Assembly (NCBI GenBank): GCA_041158505.1
Contig: JBEBBG010000009.1
Location: 5,157-69,156, forward strand
Source of the DNA: Candidatus Parcubacteria bacterium
GTDB lineage: Bacteria > Patescibacteriota > Minisyncoccia > Phycocordibacterales > JAACPR01
Length of the DNA stretch: 64,000 nucleotides
Direction: 5' to 3'
This document shows positions 15,468-27,340 of this stretch, in pieces; within the stretch, counting starts at the first letter, position 1, and each line of letters starts with the position of its first letter. The position numbers and the translations under genes are program-made. A model generated the notes under the pieces. It was not told the origin of the DNA. It was given only the letters and a program-made list of their open reading frames with translations, and searched no databases.

Positions 15468-18308
15468 ATGAAGCAGTACAATCACAGCGAAATTGAAAAG
15501 AAGTGGCAGCAAGAGTGGGCTTCGGCACGCGCTTTTGAAACGCCGGATACTGTGGCAGGAAAAGAAAACAGCTACATTCTTTTTGAGTTTCCATATCCAT
15601 CGGGAAACTTGCACGTTGGACATTGGTACGCTTTTGCTCTTACCGACATCTACGCACGATTTGAACGTCTCCGTGGCAAGAACGTGCTCTTTCCTGTCGG
15701 ATTCGATGCGTTTGGATTACCTGCCGAGAATGCGGCAATCAAGCACGGTCTTAACCCACGAACGTGGACCTACCAAAACATGGACAGTATGCGCGCACAG
15801 ATGCGTGCTATGGGGTGCACGTTTGATTGGTCTCGTGAAGTGGTTACCTGCGCACCTGAGTATTACAAGTGGACGCAATCACTTTTCTTAACGTTGTTTA
15901 ACGCGGGATTGGTGCAGAAGAAAACAACAACCGTAAACTGGGACCCTGTCGATAAAACGGTGCTTGCAAATGAACAGGTGCTTGCTGATGGCACTGCAGA
16001 ACGCTCTGGTGCGCTTGTAGAGCAAAAAGAAATGGATCAGTGGACTGTTTCAATTACAAAGTACGCCGATCGTTTGATTGATGACCTTGAGCCGCTTGAT
16101 TGGCCAGAAGCGATCAAAGATTCACAGCGTAACTGGATTGGACGGAGTGAAGGAGCAAAGCTCACCTTTACCCTCAGTGGTTCGTATGGTTCGCTCCAGG
16201 TGTTTACCACGCGCCCTGATACGCTCTACGGTGTGACGTACCTTGTCGTCGCGCCTGAGCATGAACTGGTGAGTGTTGCACTTCCTGCACTTGCTAACAA
16301 AGATGCAGTTGAAGCATACATCACAGCTGCAAAACGAAAAACAGAACGTGATCGTTTGATTGGCGAGAAAGAAAAAACAGGAGTACTCCTTGATGGGGTT
16401 ACCGCAACACATCCGCTTACCGGTGAATCATTACCAATCTACACTGCCGACTACGTACTTAAAGGGTATGGTACTGGAGCTATTATGGCGGTACCGGCAC
16501 ATGATGAACGAGACGCCGCGTTTGCGGAGGCATTCGGCTTGCCCGTAAAAAAGGTGATTGCGCCACGTCTTGTTGATGATCGAAATCCTCACGTGGAAGG
16601 TAAAGAGGTAGTCACCCGTAACGCAGTGATTGCTGTCGTCCGAAATCCAGAAAACGACACGTATTTGACATTACATTGGCCAGCGCAGCAGTGGCACACC
16701 TTTGTTATCGGTGGTGTTGAAGGAGAAGAAGATTCAGTTGCTGCGGCTCTGCGTGAAATCACTGAGGAAACGGGGTACACGGATGTACGATTTGTGCGTA
16801 AGTTGGTCGGCCCGACTCGTTCAGAGTTTTTTGCAGCACATAAGGATGTTAATCGAATCGGATACTTTGATATCCACCTCTTTGAACTTGGGAGCCTCGA
16901 ACAAAAAGTTGTCGCAGAGGAAGAAGTTAAAAAGCAAACGTATGAGTGGGTACCACGGAGTGCATTGACTACCGCCATGACCCATACAGAAATGCCGTTC
17001 ATTCTTGAGTCCCTAGATACAGGTAAGGAATTCTTTTGGAGTGGTGAGGGTATCCTCGTAAACTCAGGCGAACATACCGGCCTTTCATCTGCAGAGGCAA
17101 AGCAGCGCATTACTGAAGCGGCAGGCGGGGAACTTGTTTCTACGTACAAGCTTCGAGATTGGATTGTCTCACGACAACGCTACTGGGGCTGTCCAATTCC
17201 TATTATCAACTGTCCACATTGTGGGCCGGTCGCTGTTCCTGAAGATCAGTTACCAGTGGTACTTCCTGAAATCGATGACTACATGCCACGAGATGATGGT
17301 CGCTCACCACTTGCAAAAGCAACTGAATGGATGCAGGTGAGCTGTCCGTCGTGTGGAGGTAATGCAGAACGTGAGACGGATACCTTGGATACCTTCGTGG
17401 ACTCTTCGTGGTACTACTTACGGTATGCAGACGCAAAAAATGAGCAAGTCTTTGCTGATCGTGAAAAACTCAACGCGTGGATGCCAGTAAACTTCTACTC
17501 AGGAGGAGCTGAGCACACAACCATGCATCTCCTCTACGCACGATTCTTCAATAAGGCACTCTTTGATCTAGGGCTTGTTCCATCTGCAGAACCATTCACC
17601 AAACGCCTTAATCGCGGCCTCATCCTCGGTACTGACGGTAACAAGATGAGCAAATCGAAGGGAAATGTGATTGATCCAGATACTGAGGTTGCGCGATTTG
17701 GAGCAGACACCGTGCGAAGCTACCTTGCGTTCATCGGTCCGTACAATGAGCCAGGGAACTATCCGTGGGATCCAAACGGTATCGTGGGTGTGCGACGTTT
17801 CCTTGAGCGTGCAGCGGCCATTCCAGAGCACGTAGTGGTAGAGACGCCAGCGCACGTGCGTCAGCTTGTGCATCAATCAATAAAAAAAGTTGCAGAAGAT
17901 GCAGCGCGCTTCAAATTCAATACAGCAATCGCGCAGCTTATGGTGCTCACCAGTGCTATCTGTAAAGATGGTATTGGTAAAGACGATGCGCAGCTCGTTG
18001 CTGTTATCCTCTCGCCCTTCGCGCCGCACCTCGCAGAAGAGCTCTGGCAGCAGCTCGGAGGTATCTCACTTGTCGCGCATGAACCATGGCCACAGTATGA
18101 TGCATCGCTCCTTGAACAGGCGACTGTAATCATTGCGGTGCAGGTAAATGGAAAAGTTCGTGGGCAGGTAGAGGCCTCAAAAGACGCGACAGAGGCAGAT
18201 GTGTTGCATGCTGCATTGGGGCAAGAAAGCATTCAAAAGTGGGTTGGTGATACTGATCCAAAAAAGGTCATTTACGTCCCAGGGAAGCTCCTTTCCATCG
18301 TTGTGTAG
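15468..18308 (+). CDS. leuS: leucyl-tRNA synthetase carrying an inserted Nudix hydrolase domain
   Basis: HIGH region PYPSGNLHVGHWYAFALTDIYARFERLRG. CP1 motifs TTRPDT and GTGAIMAVPAHDERD. RLRDW-type KLRDWIVSRQRYWGCPIPI. KMSKS as NKMSKSKGNVIDP. C-terminal anticodon-binding region VIIAVQVNGKVRG. A perfect Nudix box GGVEGEEDSVAAALREITEETGY lies at nt 16710-16778, inside an extra ~145-aa block. Confidence 0.9.
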   Translation: MKQYNHSEIEKKWQQEWASARAFETPDTVAGKENSYILFEFPYPSGNLHVGHWYAFALTDIYARFERLRGKNVLFPVGFDAFGLPAENAAIKHGLNPRTWTYQNMDSMRAQMRAMGCTFDWSREVVTCAPEYYKWTQSLFLTLFNAGLVQKKTTTVNWDPVDKTVLANEQVLADGTAERSGALVEQKEMDQWTVSITKYADRLIDDLEPLDWPEAIKDSQRNWIGRSEGAKLTFTLSGSYGSLQVFTTRPDTLYGVTYLVVAPEHELVSVALPALANKDAVEAYITAAKRKTERDRLIGEKEKTGVLLDGVTATHPLTGESLPIYTADYVLKGYGTGAIMAVPAHDERDAAFAEAFGLPVKKVIAPRLVDDRNPHVEGKEVVTRNAVIAVVRNPENDTYLTLHWPAQQWHTFVIGGVEGEEDSVAAALREITEETGYTDVRFVRKLVGPTRSEFFAAHKDVNRIGYFDIHLFELGSLEQKVVAEEEVKKQTYEWVPRSALTTAMTHTEMPFILESLDTGKEFFWSGEGILVNSGEHTGLSSAEAKQRITEAAGGELVSTYKLRDWIVSRQRYWGCPIPIINCPHCGPVAVPEDQLPVVLPEIDDYMPRDDGRSPLAKATEWMQVSCPSCGGNAERETDTLDTFVDSSWYYLRYADAKNEQVFADREKLNAWMPVNFYSGGAEHTTMHLLYARFFNKALFDLGLVPSAEPFTKRLNRGLILGTDGNKMSKSKGNVIDPDTEVARFGADTVRSYLAFIGPYNEPGNYPWDPNGIVGVRRFLERAAAIPEHVVVETPAHVRQLVHQSIKKVAEDAARFKFNTAIAQLMVLTSAICKDGIGKDDAQLVAVILSPFAPHLAEELWQQLGGISLVAHEPWPQYDASLLEQATVIIAVQVNGKVRGQVEASKDATEADVLHAALGQESIQKWVGDTDPKKVIYVPGKLLSIVV

Positions 18309-18428: not shown

Positions 18429-19466
18429 ATGTCAATTACACTCAGTTTCAAACCAAAGCAAATCTCTAAAAAACTTTTGGAGACACTTCCGGAGCGTTCA
18501 CGTGACATTCTTACGAGTCGCTACGGTCTTGGTGAGGACGCAGAGACAAAAACGCTTGAAGCAATCGGTCAGGCATACGGCATCACCCGTGAGCGTGTCC
18601 GACAAATCGAAGAGTACTCACTTGCAAACATTCGCAAGTCTGATGAATTCGAAAAAACCATTCCTGTTTTTGAAGAACTCAAAGAGTCAGTAAAGACACT
18701 TGGCGGCGTTGTTCCTGAGCAGGAGCTTCTCGACGTCATTTCATCAAATAAGAGCATCCAGAACCATCTCCACTTCTTGCTCGTCCTCGGCGATCCTTTT
18801 GTAAAACTTAAAGAGGATAATCAGTTTACATGCCGATGGTGTGTTGATGAGCCGCTCGCAAAAAAGATTGAAGACTCAATCAAAAAGCTCTACAGCAGCT
18901 TGAACGATGACGACATCATCCCTGAATCAGAAATGATTACGATGTTCCTCGACCATATTAAGGAAGTATCTGATGTGTACAAAGACAAAGAGGTGCTCAA
19001 GCGATGGCTCGGCATGTCAAAGAAGATTGGACGAAATCCACTTGGTGAGTGGGGACGCGCAGATTCTCCAAACATTAACGTAAAGGGTATGCGTGACTAC
19101 GCGTACCTCGTGATTCGCCGTCACGGTTCACCAATTCACTTCCGTGAAGTTGCACAGCAGATTGAGCAGCTTTTTGGAAAGAAAGCCCACGTTGCCACAA
19201 CGCACAACGAATTGATCAAGGACAAACGATTCGTACTTGTAGGTCGCGGACTCTACGCGCTTTCTGATTGGGGATACATGAGTGGTGTTGTTCGCGATGT
19301 TATTGTGAAAATTCTCAAGAAGCACGGACCACTTACAAAGGATGAAATCATTGATAAGGTGCTCAAGGAGCGATACGTCAAAGAAAACACTATCCTTGTA
19401 AACCTCCAGAACCCAACCTTCTTTAAAAAGGATGCAAAGGGGCGATACGCTCCCGTGACTGCATAG
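18429..19466 (+). CDS. protein with an N-terminal sigma-70 region-4-like HTH and a ~250-aa unknown C-terminal domain
   Basis: LPERSRDILTSRYGLGEDAETKTLEAIGQAYGITRERVRQIEEYSLANIRK matches the sigma-70 region 4.2 consensus (..R.R.IL..RFGL....TLEEIG..FGVTRERIRQIE..AL.KLR). No regions 2 or 3 are present. Confidence 0.55.
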   Translation: MSITLSFKPKQISKKLLETLPERSRDILTSRYGLGEDAETKTLEAIGQAYGITRERVRQIEEYSLANIRKSDEFEKTIPVFEELKESVKTLGGVVPEQELLDVISSNKSIQNHLHFLLVLGDPFVKLKEDNQFTCRWCVDEPLAKKIEDSIKKLYSSLNDDDIIPESEMITMFLDHIKEVSDVYKDKEVLKRWLGMSKKIGRNPLGEWGRADSPNINVKGMRDYAYLVIRRHGSPIHFREVAQQIEQLFGKKAHVATTHNELIKDKRFVLVGRGLYALSDWGYMSGVVRDVIVKILKKHGPLTKDEIIDKVLKERYVKENTILVNLQNPTFFKKDAKGRYAPVTA

Positions 19467-22231: not shown

Positions 22232-23308
22232 ATGTCAAGCAAGCGGCTGGGGAAAGGTACAAAGCAGCGTATTTGTGTAGGCGTCTCAGGCGGCGTTGAT
22301 TCTTCTGTTGCGCTAGCCTTGCTTAAGGAACAGGGGCATGATGTGACAGGTGTTTTTATCAAAATCTGGGACCCTGAATTGTCTCAGTGTGACTGGCGTG
22401 CCGAGATGCAAGACGCTATGCGTGTCTGTGCACAGCTTGATGTGCCATTCAGAATGGTTGATTTATCCGATGTGTATCGATCAGAAGTGATTACCTACAT
22501 GATTGAGGCATACACACAAGGTATGACACCGAATCCGGATGTTATGTGTAATAAAGCAGTTAAATTCGGTGCATTTTTTACATGGGCAATGGAGCAGGGG
22601 TTTGATGCGGTAGCTACAGGACACTATGCCACAGTATCTGCTACTGGTGAACTACGAGTGGCGAAAGATGCTGCAAAAGATCAGAGCTATTTCCTCTGGA
22701 ATGTTCCAAAGGAGCGTTTGAAAAAAACACGCTTTCCTGTCGGTGAATACACAAAGATGGATGTTCGGGAACTCGCAAAACGTTTTAATCTGCCTACTGC
22801 AAATAAAGCAGACAGCCAAGGTCTCTGTTTTATTGGGCCGGTTGATGTAAAGACGTTTCTAGCGAGCAGAGTGCAGGTTTCTCCTGGTTTGGTTCTCGCT
22901 ACAAATGGAGAAACTATTGGAACTCATAAAGGCGCACTTCTGTATACGCTCGGTGAGCGACACGGTTTTTCTATAACAACACACGATACTGCCCGCAAAC
23001 CATACTATGTAGTGGCGCGTGATATACACGCAAATACCATTACCGTTTCCCGCGAACCTCGTATAGATGGAGCCGTACGATCTGTACTACTGCAGAACAC
23101 AAACTGGTTCGAAGAAGGTACTGACATGCGAGTCGATGCTGTTATTCGTTACCATGGCACACGCCACCCAGCAACACTTACCCGTACCGCAGACGGCGCG
23201 CTCGTTGTATTTGATACTCCAGTGCCAGGTGTTGCCCTTGGACAATCAGTTGTTTGTTACCAAGGAGATGTATGTGTGGTAGGTGGTAGCGCATCTGCAA
23301 CGTCCTAG
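22232..23308 (+). CDS. mnmA: tRNA-specific 2-thiouridylase MnmA
   Basis: PP-loop CVGVSGGVDSSVALALL. GHYA, and the catalytic Cys region QSYFLWNV...QGLCFIG. Start MSSKRLG sits within an ORF open from 21971. Confidence 0.85.
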   Translation: MSSKRLGKGTKQRICVGVSGGVDSSVALALLKEQGHDVTGVFIKIWDPELSQCDWRAEMQDAMRVCAQLDVPFRMVDLSDVYRSEVITYMIEAYTQGMTPNPDVMCNKAVKFGAFFTWAMEQGFDAVATGHYATVSATGELRVAKDAAKDQSYFLWNVPKERLKKTRFPVGEYTKMDVRELAKRFNLPTANKADSQGLCFIGPVDVKTFLASRVQVSPGLVLATNGETIGTHKGALLYTLGERHGFSITTHDTARKPYYVVARDIHANTITVSREPRIDGAVRSVLLQNTNWFEEGTDMRVDAVIRYHGTRHPATLTRTADGALVVFDTPVPGVALGQSVVCYQGDVCVVGGSASATS

Positions 23309-23326: not shown

Positions 23327-23788
23327 ATGCAAAAGACAACCACAGGAGTACTGATTGCTGGGTGTATTATTATTGGCATTGCAATTGCACTCTACGTTTC
23401 GACAAAGACAGAGCAGTACATTGAAACGCCGCGAGAAGAGATGATTGAGGAGCTTGCCTCTACACCAACGACAACCGTTATGGTAAAGCACCAGTACAAA
23501 GATGGTGTTCATACCTTTGCAGGTGTTGTTGAGACACCAACCCCTTGTTACGATACGCGCGCAATTATCGTCAGTGGCGATGTGAACGAGATTCAAATCA
23601 GGACAGAGGAACAAGCTGTTGAGGTTTGTGCCCAGACAGTTACTGACCAACCATTTAAGGTAAGTCACCAGTCAGCGCCTGATGCTCGATTCCTCATGAC
23701 GCTAAATGGAGAACTGGTAAACATGAACCAGTTTGATATTGATGCAGATGTGGATATCGATACCGTAGAGGTGCTCATTAAGGGGTAA
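23327..23788 (+). CDS. hypothetical membrane-anchored protein
   Basis: N-terminal TM GVLIAGCIIIGIAIALYV. 153 aa. Confidence 0.45.
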   Translation: MQKTTTGVLIAGCIIIGIAIALYVSTKTEQYIETPREEMIEELASTPTTTVMVKHQYKDGVHTFAGVVETPTPCYDTRAIIVSGDVNEIQIRTEEQAVEVCAQTVTDQPFKVSHQSAPDARFLMTLNGELVNMNQFDIDADVDIDTVEVLIKG

Positions 23789-23800
23789 TACTAACGTTGT

Positions 23801-24658
23801 ATGCGCACGGTCCAGATTGTAAAAGGGAATGGTGATCGTGAGTCATTTGATCCAGATAAACTGAGGCAATCACTCTTGCGCGCGCACGCCACCACGATTG
23901 CGGCAGAGGCTGTTGTTGACGCAATTACAAAAGAAATTCGGGCAGGGATGAGTACTGGTGATATCTATCGTCGCGCCTTTACTCTGCTTAGTTCTACTGA
24001 GCATAGTGCCGCGCTTACGTATAGCATTAGACGCTCAGTTCTTAACTTAGGACCGACAGGTTTTCCTTTTGAGCGCTACATTGCCGAATTGCTTGCAGAG
24101 CAGGGCTACAAAACAAGAACTGGTCAGCACATACAAGGGCGCTGCATTGAACATGAGGTTGATGTTGTCGCTTGGAACAATGAGCAGCTGCTATTTGCTG
24201 AGGTTAAATTCCATAATGAATTAACAATGAAAAGCGATACAAAAACCGCTTTGTACGTTAAGGCGCGTTTTGATGACCTCTACGATCACACGCATCGAAT
24301 TGAGGGCAAAGAGAGAACCTTGACCCGCGGCATGCTCATTACAAATACAAAATTCACGCAAGGGGCAAAAGAGTATGCGTCATGCGTGGGAACATTCGAC
24401 ATGATTAGTTGGGATTACCCTGAGCATGGAAATTTGTACGACATGATTGCTCAAACAGGACTGCACCCAATGACATGCCTCCCAAGTCTCTCTGAACATG
24501 ATAAAAGAGAGTTGCTCAAACGTGGTATTTTGCATTGTAAGACGCTGCAAGAAGATCCATCGATTATGCGTAGCATTGGTTTGCCCGATACTGCGATTGA
24601 AACAGTCGTGCGTGACGTTGAACAGCTCCGGAAGCCAAAGCGGTCGCACGACCTGTGA
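23801..24658 (+). CDS. ATP-cone domain fused to an Mrr-like PD-(D/E)xK restriction-endonuclease-fold domain
   Basis: ATP-cone: RTVQIVKGNGDRESFDPDKLRQSLLRA...AEAVVDAITKEIRAG (compare NrdR/RNR ATP cones, VIKRDG..E.F...KI). Nuclease core: HEVDVVAWNNEQLLFAEVKFHNE (D...EVK). Confidence 0.6.
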   Translation: MRTVQIVKGNGDRESFDPDKLRQSLLRAHATTIAAEAVVDAITKEIRAGMSTGDIYRRAFTLLSSTEHSAALTYSIRRSVLNLGPTGFPFERYIAELLAEQGYKTRTGQHIQGRCIEHEVDVVAWNNEQLLFAEVKFHNELTMKSDTKTALYVKARFDDLYDHTHRIEGKERTLTRGMLITNTKFTQGAKEYASCVGTFDMISWDYPEHGNLYDMIAQTGLHPMTCLPSLSEHDKRELLKRGILHCKTLQEDPSIMRSIGLPDTAIETVVRDVEQLRKPKRSHDL

Positions 24659-24703: not shown

Positions 24704-25873
24704 ATGTTAGGTTGGGGAACACGCAAGCAGCGTGCCGAGTGTAAACTTATTGTTGATATTCGAAGTGCCTCTGTAGGCGCAGCGCTTGTCGTCTATGGAG
24801 AAGCTGCTCCATCGTACGTGTATGGTACTCGAGTGCCTATTGATGCCGCCGCATCTAAAGATGCGGCGGCCATAACACCTGCAATGCTTGCTGCACTTGC
24901 GCAGGTGGGGCAAAAGGTTGTGGCTGAAGGTTTGCCACGTTTGGCAGTAAGCACGGGCGCTCCGCGTGTCACAGAGGCAGTCATTGCCTTTGCTGCGCCA
25001 TGGTATACAGCGCTGGTACATGATATTTCAGTAAAAAAAGAAAAGCCGTTTATTCTTACGAGGCACGCATGGAAGCAGTTGCTCGAAGAAAAGCTTACTA
25101 CTGTTGCCAAACAGCCAACAGGTTACAGCAACCTAGAACACGACATCACTCGCGTGATGGTGAATGGGTATGAACTAAAAGATCCATTTCATAAAAAGGT
25201 TCAGGAGATGCTCATCGCTCTTTACACCAGCTTTGTAAGCGAGCAAACAAAAACCGCTGTGGCAGAGGCAGTCCAAAAGCATTTTCACGGAGTTCCTTGT
25301 ACGTACAAGACAATGCCGCTCATCTCTTTCACGACACTCCGAGATATGTTTTGGAATGTCGATCGATTTACGTTTTTTGATGTCGGAGGGTTGGTTACCG
25401 AAGTTGGTGTTGTTGAGGGGGGAACGATAACGCATATTATGAGCGTCCCCTATGGATCACAGCATATGCTCCAGGCGGTACAAGCGGCATGCAGTATGGA
25501 TGATGCTACGCTAACCTCTGCAATGAGCATGCTTGCAAAAAACGAACTGCATCCATCGTGTACGGAAGCACTTGCTACAGCACGGACCGCGGCGGAACAA
25601 GCTTGGGTTACGGCAATTCGAACCCAGCTCGATGTCGAGGGTATTACATTGCCACCACGAGTTTTTGTTCAAGTCGCCCCAAGTCTACAGCCAATATTTG
25701 GAGCCCTCTTTGGGGCACCACAGCATCGCAAAACACTCTTTGGGTCAGACCAAGAGATACAGGTTGCTGTACTCACGCAGGATCATGTTCGAAAGTACAT
25801 TGATATACCAAAAGACACCCTGATTGACCCTTTTATGCTATTAACAGCTCTTTTCTTGCGTACTTCAAGGTAG
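24704..25873 (+). CDS. hypothetical protein, possibly actin-like ATPase (ASKHA) fold
   Basis: N-terminal LIVDIRSASVGAALVV and a later FFDVGGLVTEVGVVEGG resemble the ASKHA phosphate-1 and phosphate-2 motifs. The assignment is weak. Confidence 0.4.
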   Translation: MLGWGTRKQRAECKLIVDIRSASVGAALVVYGEAAPSYVYGTRVPIDAAASKDAAAITPAMLAALAQVGQKVVAEGLPRLAVSTGAPRVTEAVIAFAAPWYTALVHDISVKKEKPFILTRHAWKQLLEEKLTTVAKQPTGYSNLEHDITRVMVNGYELKDPFHKKVQEMLIALYTSFVSEQTKTAVAEAVQKHFHGVPCTYKTMPLISFTTLRDMFWNVDRFTFFDVGGLVTEVGVVEGGTITHIMSVPYGSQHMLQAVQAACSMDDATLTSAMSMLAKNELHPSCTEALATARTAAEQAWVTAIRTQLDVEGITLPPRVFVQVAPSLQPIFGALFGAPQHRKTLFGSDQEIQVAVLTQDHVRKYIDIPKDTLIDPFMLLTALFLRTSR

Positions 25874-25876
25874 CTT

Positions 25877-27340
25877 GTGGTACAATTTTCAAGTATGACA
25901 AACGAGGTTCCCCAAGACGCACAACCACACAAGCGCTCAATTAGAAACATTCCTTTGCCAGACAACCGTCGTCGCATTGTGACAAGCTACGACATTGAAT
26001 CGGTTGCACCTCCAACGCCACCACGTCCGCAGCAAATGCATGATGAACGACCAGCCCCTGTACGAGAAACAGTAACCACACGCCTAACTTCAGAATCAAT
26101 GACACCTCCAGCGTACAATCAGGAACAAGAAGAGACCGAATACGAAGTACCACGACGAGCTCGGCAGAGCAGTGCGTCAGCGCCTCGTAGAGCTTCTCGA
26201 AAGCGGTCATACGTCTTGCTTACTTCAATTGCGGTCATCGTTATTGCAGTTCTTGGCATGTTCTTCTCATTTGGTGGCGCAACGGTGACTGTGTACCCAC
26301 GACAAGTAACAACTACGCTAAGCGCCGAGGTAGAGGCTCAAAACCTCGCAACCCCTACATCAAGTCCTGCGCTCTCTTTTACAGCAGAATCAATCGTTGC
26401 TGAAGCTACACGTGAGGTTGTGGCGACTGGTGAAGAAGAGGTTGTAGAAAAGGCAAAGGGCCGAATTACTATCGTGAATGAGTATTCAGAAGAAGAGCAG
26501 CGTCTTCTCAAGAATACCCGTTTTGAATCACCAGATGGTCTTATCTTTAGAATTCCTGATTCAGTAGTGGTTCCAGGATTTACTCGAGATGCCTCTGGAA
26601 ATGTGGTGCCAGGTAAGCTTGTTGCTGAAGTGGTTGCTGATCAACCAGGTAAAGAGTACAACATTGGCGCAACGAACCGCTTTACCGTACCAGGTTTTAA
26701 AGATATGCCACAGTACAGCAGCTTCTACGCTACGTCTGATAGTCAGATGGTTGGAGGATTTAACGGTGTAAAGAAGATTGTTTCTGCAGAAGACAGAAAT
26801 CGAGCAGAGCGAGAGCTTCGGGATGATATTAAGCAGCAGCTTGCAGCCCGTGCGGCTGAACGAAAGGTTGAAGGGAGCGTTATTCTTACCGACGACAGCT
26901 TAACGCTCTACGAGACACTCGAAGAGACAAGTGAGGGTGATACAGTAACACTTGGTATGCGCGGTACTACAAAGGCGGTTATGGTACGAGCAGACGCGCT
27001 CGCACAAGTCCTTGCACAAACCGATTTAAACTCATACACAGAAGGAGACATTGTTAGCATTACCAACCTTGGGGAGCTTCGTATGCGAGCCTTTGCAAAA
27101 ACTGGAGACACAACGTTTAGCACCGTTAGAATTGCCGTTGAAGGTGATGCAACCTTCGAATGGGTACTTGATGAGGCGGCATTTAAGCAGGCGCTCGCTG
27201 GCAGCGATAAAGATGACCTCGCAACTATCGTGCCTACCTTTAAGGCAATTACTAAGGCAAGTGCCAAGATCCGACCTATTTGGAAAGGTTCATTCTCTGA
27301 AAATACCGAAAAAATTACCATTGTTTATGCAAAAGAGTAG
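25877..27340 (+). CDS. hypothetical bitopic membrane protein with Pro-rich cytoplasmic N-terminus
   Basis: 487 aa. TM at YVLLTSIAVIVIAVLGMFFSF after a ~115-aa P/R/Q-rich N-terminal region. Confidence 0.45.
   Translation: MVQFSSMTNEVPQDAQPHKRSIRNIPLPDNRRRIVTSYDIESVAPPTPPRPQQMHDERPAPVRETVTTRLTSESMTPPAYNQEQEETEYEVPRRARQSSASAPRRASRKRSYVLLTSIAVIVIAVLGMFFSFGGATVTVYPRQVTTTLSAEVEAQNLATPTSSPALSFTAESIVAEATREVVATGEEEVVEKAKGRITIVNEYSEEEQRLLKNTRFESPDGLIFRIPDSVVVPGFTRDASGNVVPGKLVAEVVADQPGKEYNIGATNRFTVPGFKDMPQYSSFYATSDSQMVGGFNGVKKIVSAEDRNRAERELRDDIKQQLAARAAERKVEGSVILTDDSLTLYETLEETSEGDTVTLGMRGTTKAVMVRADALAQVLAQTDLNSYTEGDIVSITNLGELRMRAFAKTGDTTFSTVRIAVEGDATFEWVLDEAAFKQALAGSDKDDLATIVPTFKAITKASAKIRPIWKGSFSENTEKITIVYAKE

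Follow-up and report, generated by a model that had tools for sequence, protein, structure and literature searches.

A nuclease joined to an apparent sensor of the nucleotide pool raises the question of what a cell would use such a protein for. The combination is encoded in a 64,000-nucleotide stretch of contig JBEBBG010000009.1 of a Candidatus Parcubacteria bacterium, the whole of which we call the window. The gene of interest, an open reading frame (ORF) running from ATG to TGA at 23801–24658 (+), encodes a protein of 285 amino acids (aa). A first-pass annotation of the DNA had read it as an ATP-cone fused to an Mrr-like PD-(D/E)xK nuclease and had proposed a restriction or phage-defence role. 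The fusion was confirmed, as both Pfam domains score above their cut-offs and the fold model agrees; the defence role was not borne out. We favour an endonuclease that is gated by adenine nucleotides and serves the turnover or salvage of nucleic acids, a housekeeping enzyme and not a defence one, and give this reading about as much belief as doubt.

Domain layout and active site

Searches with hidden Markov models supported both of the domains first named. The ATP-cone (PF03477) scored 29.1 bits against a cut-off of 25.8 over residues 5–55, and Mrr_cat (PF04471) scored 28.9 bits against 21 over residues 87–195. As these Pfam scores are modest, we sought independent evidence. An AlphaFold2 model of the 285-aa protein, computed with an alignment of 149 sequences as input, was confident (predicted local distance difference test score, pLDDT, 92.5; predicted template-modelling score, pTM, 0.87). 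Its N-terminal domain superposes on the ATP-cone of NrdR and the remainder on Protein Data Bank (PDB) entry 1Y88. The ORF, the Pfam matches, the match to 1Y88 and the model together give a three-domain protein over 23801–24658 (+): an ATP-cone, a PD-(D/E)xK nuclease and an AF1548-like C-terminal domain. The earlier inventory was right about the first two but missed the third (PF22357). A protein identical to the window ORF (P0001) is labelled "hypothetical protein" in a Candidatus Parcubacteria metagenome-assembled genome.

The ATP-cone covers residues 3–82 (23807–24046, +), as placed by Pfam, Foldseek and residue mapping. In the model, it consists of a beta-hairpin lid (strands 5–7 and 13–15) and helices at 18–27, 32–45, 52–66 and 68–80, with pLDDT of 83–96. 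Foldseek superposed it on the cone of Escherichia coli NrdR (9gex) with a root-mean-square deviation of 1.7–1.8 Å over 81–83 residues and on that of the class III ribonucleotide reductase (RNR) 9d3x with 2.5 Å over 84 residues, and also matched the cones of NrdB (5olk) and of class I and class III reductases. In relatives, PF03477 scores reach 36.7 bits, over residues 1–80. The NrdR equivalog model TIGR00244 gave 19.5 bits against a cut-off of 124.65, the match being limited to the cone, and there is no NrdR-type N-terminal four-cysteine Zn-ribbon, the protein beginning directly with the cone.

In the inner site of E. coli NrdR, the adenine is covered by K53, E59 and K65, the hydrophobic pocket is formed by V51, F61, L66 and I108, and the gamma-phosphate is contacted by S54 and S105 (bioRxiv 10.1101/2025.03.28.645925). 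In the HMMER alignment, these three groups correspond to K8, E14 and K20, to I6, F16, L21 and I55, and to G9 and T52 of the window protein. The predicted adenine-nucleotide pocket would be made up of K8, E14, F16, K20, L21, T52 and I55. We assessed conservation in 144 cluster representatives that are 31–44% identical to the window protein. K8, F16, K20, T52 and I55 are highly conserved across the family; K8 is kept in 142, K20 in 135 and F16 in 134 of the 144, E14 in only 96. The conserved Y74 is a candidate counterpart of NrdR Tyr131, the ATP/dATP gate.

The cone is joined to the nuclease by a linker, L83-G-P-x-G-F-P-F-E91 (24047–24073, +), which closes with the first acidic residue of the active site and is defined by its conservation in the representatives: at least 90% of them keep G84, P85 and G87, and all keep F90 and E91. 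The Mrr/AF1548-type PD-(D/E)xK core covers residues 87–200 (24059–24400, +) according to Pfam PF04471, 1Y88, Foldseek and conservation. The model places a helix at 87–100, strands at 104–112, 117–125 and 130–136, a helix at 147–160, strands within 164–181 and a helix at 187–196; with the strand at 176–181, the succession is alpha-beta-beta-beta-alpha-beta. The D-x12-E-V-K motif reported in the first pass was verified as D121-x12-E134-V-K136, at codons 24161–24163 (GAT), 24200–24202 (GAG) and 24206–24208 (AAA), and the peptide quoted there, HEVDVVAWNNEQLLFAEVKF, corresponds to residues 118–137. The remaining catalytic residue, E91, is encoded at 24071–24073, and the core also carries R156, D159 and a T181-N-T-K-F motif. 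The PD-(D/E)xK residues proved fully conserved among homologues: E91, D121, E134 and K136 are found in 144/144 representatives, as are R156, D159, F90, G113 and P223, and the active-site residues are likewise invariant among 117 closer relatives.

The closest structure to the nuclease part is that of AF1548. The window sequence matched 1Y88 over residues 92–272 (phmmer, E=2e-25), the family profile matched it with E=6e-54, and it was the top Foldseek match of the full model (E=1e-14, template-modelling score 0.76, 31% identity). The predicted active site of AF1548, D38/E51/K53 (GOS paper, PMC1821046), aligns with D121/E134/K136. By fold, the core also matched MspJI, AspBHI, Can2 and Cdn1. The Holliday junction resolvase model Hjc (PF01870) stayed under its threshold, with 16.7 bits against 21.1, a generic PD-(D/E)xK similarity. 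The invariance of the active site across such divergent representatives argues for catalysis over mere DNA binding. The site is intact and under strong purifying selection, and the protein is predicted to be catalytically competent.

The alignment with 1Y88 runs well past the Mrr core, to residue 272, and thereby indicates the third domain, at residues ~205–278 (24413–24634, +), which is also supported by PF22357 in relatives. It is marked by a conserved W204-x-x-P207 and by a G-L-H-P223-x-T225-C-L hairpin, in which T225 is kept in 138 of the 144 representatives. Many relatives match PF22357 (AF1548-like, C-terminal), among them the Algoriphagus protein P0272 with 29.4 bits against a cut-off of 23.9; the window protein has no match to it at E<=1. 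Modelled alone, the domain reached a pLDDT of 74.8. Its first-ranked match was again 1Y88 (E=0.024), followed by the N-terminal domain of RadA/RAD51, Pol kappa/iota, NusA, Hel308 and BAF, each individually non-significant (E 0.5–6). As these weak matches are all binders of the helix-hairpin-helix type, we read the domain, with low confidence, as probably a helix-hairpin-helix-type, non-specific nucleic-acid-binding module. Two loci encode naturally shorter versions of 228–229 aa (L019, 5989–6675; L020, 1749–2438) that lack the AF1548-like C-terminal domain, retain the ATP-cone and the nuclease core, and overlap the downstream Cas4-like gene by 8–29 nucleotides (nt).

The family is large and widespread, and its extent goes well past what chance could explain. 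We found 3938 clusters at 90% identity (E<=1e-3), and an exhaustive search at 50% identity gave 1065 clusters, of which 373 have E<=1e-30; among the best 150 clusters listed, nearly all proteins are 275–290 aa long and align end to end. A single-protein query of the genome collection returned 12 close relatives. With profile searches, the same three-domain protein was found in cultured Bacteroidota (Algoriphagus ratkowskyi, Cyclobacterium, Roseihalotalea and Pontibacter), in Balneolaceae, Ignavibacteria and Dependentiae/Babeliales, and on a plasmid of Criblamydia (Chlamydiota). One protein, P0263, was considered as a genuine bacterial member lacking the ATP-cone and rejected as probably truncated, since its relatives are nearly all ~275–285 aa long and many have the cone. 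The fusion architecture is ancient and already catalogued in databases, where entries are called "ATP cone domain-containing protein" or "restriction endonuclease", and some sources label relatives "Holliday junction resolvase-like". In the full-text literature searched, we came upon no paper connecting an ATP-cone with a nuclease, nor any that deals with this family, experimentally or otherwise; a preprint on the Pseudomonas aeruginosa metalloproteome mentions ATP-cone and restriction endonucleases in unconnected places.

Gene neighbourhoods

The first-pass annotation had described the gene as standing alone. This holds for the window locus but not for its relatives, in which the gene is coupled either to a Cas4-like nuclease and/or uracil-DNA glycosylase (UDG) or to an operon of nucleotide catabolism. 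The latter arrangement is found outside the candidate phyla radiation (CPR). On plasmids of Pontibacter and Criblamydia, the nuclease gene heads the same four-gene cluster, followed by a beta-CASP/RMMBL metallo-hydrolase, a ~500-aa protein of the thymidine phosphorylase family and a ribose-phosphate pyrophosphokinase (PRPP synthase); the partner proteins are 54–60% identical between the two plasmids. In Criblamydia sequanensis (plasmid NZ_LK031773.1, locus L027, 3861–13886), the genes on either side of the cluster encode phosphoketolase, glycogen phosphorylase and acetate kinase, and the region reads like a module for fermenting a reserve polymer to ATP.

For wider sampling, we retrieved 80 metagenome loci using an alignment of 29 non-CPR sequences, a set biased to the non-CPR clade and to the best-scoring matches. 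Neighbouring ORFs were clustered without prior labels and counted over the 66 loci that extend 1.4 kb or more downstream. The beta-CASP/RMMBL gene was found at position +1 or +2 in 42/66 loci, the phosphorylase in 28/66 and PRPP synthase in 24/66. A tandem universal stress protein (Usp) was present in 25/66, in 22 of them upstream at −1/−2. Genes are tightly packed, with median gaps of 2 nt from Usp to the nuclease gene, 3.5 nt from there to the metallo-hydrolase, 3 nt on to the phosphorylase and 8 nt on to PRPP synthase, and a 3.5-Mb contig has the identical arrangement. Recurrent further upstream were NDH-2, a GAPDH-like protein, a DeoC/LacD aldolase, phosphofructokinase and D-2-hydroxyacid dehydrogenase. 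Among the NCBIfam models, the phosphorylase passes TIGR02645/NF003338, an archaeal-type group that is sister to AMP phosphorylase, and reaches 480 bits with the AMP phosphorylase model, under its cut-off of 535. PRPP synthase passes NF005537, and the metallo-hydrolase is nearest to beta-CASP ribonucleases. In Bradyrhizobium diazoefficiens, microoxia induces a trio of the same metallo-hydrolase, PRPP synthase and phosphorylase genes (bll3115–3117), as seen in transcripts and proteins alike (PMC6515984). For the lxa locus of Burkholderia, considered as a possible further case, the main text of PMC3721108 does not list the three genes, and the locus serves us as an analogy and not as evidence.

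Three further ORFs recur in these loci. A conserved acidic ORF of 84 aa, Cys-rich at its end (...PSCCGGH), is placed between the nuclease and beta-CASP genes in L088 (8867–9121), likewise in 17 of the 66 non-CPR loci (e.g. L046, L047, L055, L072 and L104), and in L109 (7873–8127). It has no match in Pfam or NCBIfam and may be a small regulator, a metal-binding partner or an inhibitor of the nuclease. ORFs of 219 aa (c7; L030, 9026–9685) and 97 aa (c9; L104, 13649–13942) follow the PRPP synthase gene in 18 and 15 loci, respectively, and neither has a family match.

Within the CPR, all 21 of 21 loci, down to 36% identity, have the gene after mnmA and in the same orientation, and leuS, a sigma/HARE protein, DUF8128 and YceG recur upstream wherever the contig extends far enough. 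Downstream, a Cas4-like PDDEXK_1 nuclease and/or a family-4 UDG, and then alaS, are found in 15/21 loci. In 7/8 lineages, the start of the Cas4-like gene is −29 to +19 nt away from where the nuclease gene ends, and the UDG gene lies −13 to +32 nt from the nuclease gene in 3/5 lineages; in these sister lineages, the gene is translationally coupled to the one and/or the other. Cas4-like and UDG genes are absent from the window locus and were found nowhere else in the 64 kb, the window lineage having lost them from the locus. The GC content of the gene, 0.46, equals that of its flanks, and the conserved gene order together with this flank-like composition points to a vertically inherited core gene.

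In the window, the same-strand order upstream is leuS, a Sigma70_r4/HARE-HTH protein, DUF8128, YceG, mnmA, an ORF of 153 aa and the nuclease gene; downstream come ORFs of 389 and 487 aa, infA, rpsM, rpsK, rpsD, rpoA and rplQ. The position beside mnmA given in the first pass is right in that this gene (22235–23308, +; tRNA 2-thiouridylase, Pfam tRNA_Me_trans) lies upstream, where it serves as a synteny anchor and belongs to the context and not to the functional unit. The two are not direct neighbours, though, as the 153-aa ORF (23327–23788, +) intervenes and leaves a gap of 12 nt to the nuclease gene. According to the ORF list and the locus comparison, this ORF has a hydrophobic N-terminus and no family match. 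Its counterparts are confined to the closest relatives (L003, L004 and L010), and it is probably co-transcribed with the nuclease gene. We found no sigma-70-like promoter around the gene and only weak terminator-like hairpins inside ORFs, a scan that is uninformative for a CPR organism.

Some neighbours have features of their own. The 946-aa product of leuS (15468–18308, +) carries a NUDIX hydrolase domain (PF00293, aa 383–500) beside the editing domain, an unusual insertion that is also present in L005 and L008/L009 (1124–1131 aa) and not in L003, L004 and L006 (771–808 aa). The protein at 18429–19466 (+), of 345 aa, has a Sigma70 region-4 helix-turn-helix (HTH) at its N-terminus and a HARE-HTH near aa 222–281. 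Where it occurs, its gene is conserved better than any other of the block, mostly with 64–87% identity and with 44% in L019, and the protein has a local PADLOC match to MzaA in the HTH part only. The ORFs at 24704–25873 (389 aa) and 25877–27340 (487 aa), both on the + strand, belong to no convincing family; the pair is kept just upstream of infA in many CPR loci, also where further genes separate the two from the nuclease gene. Over the whole window (1–64000), long ORFs are nearly all on the + strand and the sole tRNA gene is tRNA-Ala at 737–812, which fits a compact, strongly co-oriented CPR genome.

A proposed role in nucleic-acid turnover and its alternatives

In the reading that we favour, binding of ATP versus dATP at the cone, or loss of the nucleotide, would alter the oligomeric state or domain packing as it does in RNR and NrdR, and the change would assemble or sequester the nuclease active sites. 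The C-terminal helix-hairpin-helix-like domain would hold the nucleic-acid backbone independently of sequence. The endonuclease would then cut internally and a partner exonuclease, Cas4-like in Parcubacteria and beta-CASP in Bacteroidota, Chlamydiota and others, would reduce the fragments to mononucleotides. In the non-CPR operon, the archaeal-type nucleoside or nucleoside monophosphate phosphorylase and PRPP synthase would recover base and ribose phosphate for re-use. The ATP-cone could in this way place nucleic-acid breakdown under feedback from its end product or from the energy charge; that the triphosphate-loaded form is the off state is our guess.

Evidence of several kinds speaks for such a role. 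The gene is linked in operons to an exonuclease in two unrelated forms, Cas4-like and beta-CASP; outside the CPR, it is linked to enzymes leading from nucleotides to ribose phosphate, inside an island of stress and fermentation genes; and the ATP-cones in the literature searched all regulate nucleotide metabolism, in RNR and NrdR. CPR bacteria, Dependentiae and Chlamydiota are generally reliant on external nucleotides and unable to synthesise their own, and we counted the richness of the family's host range in these groups in favour of salvage.

Several points weigh on the other side. The ATP-cone of the window protein clears its Pfam threshold by only 3 bits, and position 9, which corresponds to the gamma-phosphate contact S54 of NrdR, is Gly or Ala here. 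That the cone binds nucleotide, which nucleic acid is cut (DNA or RNA) and which way the regulation runs are all matters of inference. The operon evidence is drawn from relatives that share only 35–40% identity with the window protein. Several non-CPR copies lack a recurrent partner, and others are located in copper/RND efflux islands. In the window, no exonuclease, phosphorylase or PRPP synthase gene is adjacent or anywhere within the 64 kb, so the role of the protein here is inferred from orthology. Adjacency in the CPR may itself mean little, because these genomes are compact and mnmA and alaS are equally adjacent. Lastly, the CPR neighbours, a Cas4-like nuclease and a UDG, suit DNA repair at least as well.

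The first alternative is a nuclease of DNA repair or recombination. The protein might cut structured or damaged DNA, such as abasic or uracil-excision intermediates or branched DNA, alongside the Cas4-like exonuclease and the family-4 UDG, and the ATP-cone would tie cutting to the supply of deoxynucleoside triphosphates and ATP, limiting breaks to times at which the DNA can be resynthesised. The coupling to those two genes in the CPR speaks for this reading, and the C-terminal domain has a weak likeness to the helix-hairpin-helix modules of RadA/RAD51, Y-family polymerases and Hel308. Similarities to Hjc and YraN, both below threshold, the resolvase-like labels on relatives and a UvrA gene near the Babeliales copy point in the same direction. 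However, the Hjc score does not reach the Pfam cut-off, the partners that recur across phyla are metabolic (a beta-CASP protein with an RNA-specificity domain, the phosphorylase, PRPP synthase, Usp and glycolytic genes), and the window locus keeps the nuclease gene without the Cas4-like and UDG genes. We consider a repair role possible, if on the unlikely side.

A bolder form of the turnover reading makes the protein a gatekeeper for the regulated consumption of the cell's own nucleic acids. A fall in adenylate or dATP under hypoxia, starvation or host dependence would free the endonuclease, the partner exonuclease would bring RNA or DNA down to mononucleotides, and the phosphorylase with the PRPP-synthase-like enzyme would turn these into bases and ribose phosphates for the adjacent glycolytic and fermentative genes or for salvage. 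If true, the ATP-cone would gain a new class of output, and CPR bacteria, Dependentiae, Chlamydiota and Bacteroidota would have a survival module in common; we think it unlikely.

In the defence idea of the first-pass annotation, a Type IV-like or abortive-infection enzyme encoded by a solitary gene would sense an ATP/dATP pool disturbed by phage and then cut DNA. It is favoured by the Mrr-family catalytic domain, by a fold resembling MspJI and AspBHI and the ligand-activated Can2, Card1 and Cdn1, and by an architecture of sensor plus nuclease that is typical of defence effectors. Some copies, moreover, lie on plasmids or mobile stress islands, and the gene is solitary in several genomes. On the other hand, no meaningful match was found in PADLOC-DB v2, the best one (E=0.0011) covering part of the nuclease domain only. 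The operon partners (metallo-hydrolase, phosphorylase and PRPP synthase) had no PADLOC match, and the unannotated window neighbours gave only the local match of the sigma region-4 HTH and one weak match (E=1e-4), the 153-aa ORF having none. The protein has neither a methyltransferase partner nor a domain that reads modified DNA (winged helix or SRA-like). No relatives were found in 50,697 phage records by tblastn or, using one peptide pattern, in 2.9 million viral contigs, the latter negative being supportive rather than exhaustive because of the single pattern. The neighbourhood analysis, too, spoke against defence: all 21 CPR loci keep the gene at a fixed position within one housekeeping block, and its composition is that of the flanks. 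Defence genes are normally sporadic, associated with islands and fast in turnover, whereas this family keeps its length, its architecture and ~25 invariant or near-invariant residues across phyla. A defence role is, in our view, decidedly improbable.

Catalytically inactive PD-(D/E)xK folds serve as DNA binders in other families, NrdR has the nearest ATP-cone in both sequence and structure, and no NrdR or other ATP-cone protein was found within the 64-kb window, all of which speak for a non-catalytic, NrdR-like transcriptional regulator that uses the nuclease fold and helix-hairpin-helix domain as a DNA-binding module under control of the cone, but we hold this to be very improbable, as the four catalytic residues with R156 and D159 are kept in 144/144 representatives, which is unexpected for a pure binder and was our reason for rejecting a substitute for NrdR, and as the protein lacks the Zn-ribbon and shows no association with nrd genes in the ~130 loci examined.

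Significance and comparison with known systems

In the literature searched, the ATP-cone is treated solely as a switch of deoxynucleotide synthesis, in RNR and NrdR; here, thousands of organisms have that sensor joined to an intact nuclease. Should the prediction of a nucleotide-gated turnover nuclease be true, the reach of ATP-cone allostery would widen from the making of nucleotides to the breakdown of nucleic acids, and CPR bacteria, Dependentiae and Chlamydiota would have a regulated entry point for nucleotide recycling. It would also provide a function for the conserved, microoxia-linked operon of Usp, nuclease, beta-CASP protein, phosphorylase and PRPP synthase, for which we found no functional description in the literature searched. 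The database label "restriction endonuclease" is probably misleading, since the genomic behaviour contradicts the look of a defence effector. The hypothesis is directly testable because there are cultured hosts, Algoriphagus and Pontibacter, and a homologous crystal structure.

Among characterised or solved proteins, AF1548 of Archaeoglobus fulgidus, a structural-genomics protein (1Y88; Mrr_cat and AF1548-like_C in Pfam), shares homology with the window protein in both the nuclease core and the helical C-terminal domain and has the same D/E-x-K residues. It differs in being 199 aa long and without an ATP-cone, and it gives a structure but no function. The cones of NrdR and of class I and class III RNRs have the same fold and the same adenine-pocket residues (K, E, F, K, L, T/S and I), and the logic of an oligomer change driven by nucleotides is borrowed from them by analogy. 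Unlike these, the window protein has no Zn-ribbon, no RNR catalytic barrel and no linkage to nrd genes, and its output is a nuclease.

The archaeal AMP-phosphorylase, or pentose-bisphosphate, pathway of nucleotide catabolism was reportedly described by Sato et al. in Science in 2007, and counterparts are said to occur in CPR bacteria. The non-CPR operon partner is likewise an archaeal-type phosphorylase of ~500 aa, which suggests that catabolism from nucleotides to ribose phosphate lies downstream of the nucleases. The parallel is incomplete, however, as the phosphorylase falls under the cut-off of the AMP-phosphorylase equivalog and neither ribose-1,5-bisphosphate isomerase nor RuBisCO was seen in the loci, and the window has none of these genes.

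With E. coli Mrr and the Type IV enzymes MspJI and AspBHI, the window protein shares the Mrr_cat domain, with a TNTKF-type motif following the core, and the solitary state without a methyltransferase. Its N-terminus, by contrast, is an ATP-cone and not a winged-helix or SRA-like reader, and its gene behaves in genomes as a core gene or as part of a metabolic operon and not as a gene of a defence island. Can2, Card1 and Cdn1 have a similar design, in which a sensor of a ligand derived from adenine nucleotides is combined with a similar PD-(D/E)xK core, and models of the Can2/Card1 type (CARF_PDDEXK, Csx1 and Card1_endonuc) gave weak PADLOC and Pfam matches to the nuclease part only. Here, an ATP-cone takes the place of CARF as the sensor, and its ligand is presumably a primary metabolite (ATP or dATP) in place of a second messenger. 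There is no CRISPR or CBASS context, and the likeness to Can2 and Card1 is one of design and not of membership. The protein is not NrdR, not a Type IV enzyme of the Mrr type, not a CARF nuclease and not Hjc, and it belongs to the ATP-cone, Mrr_cat and AF1548-like families.

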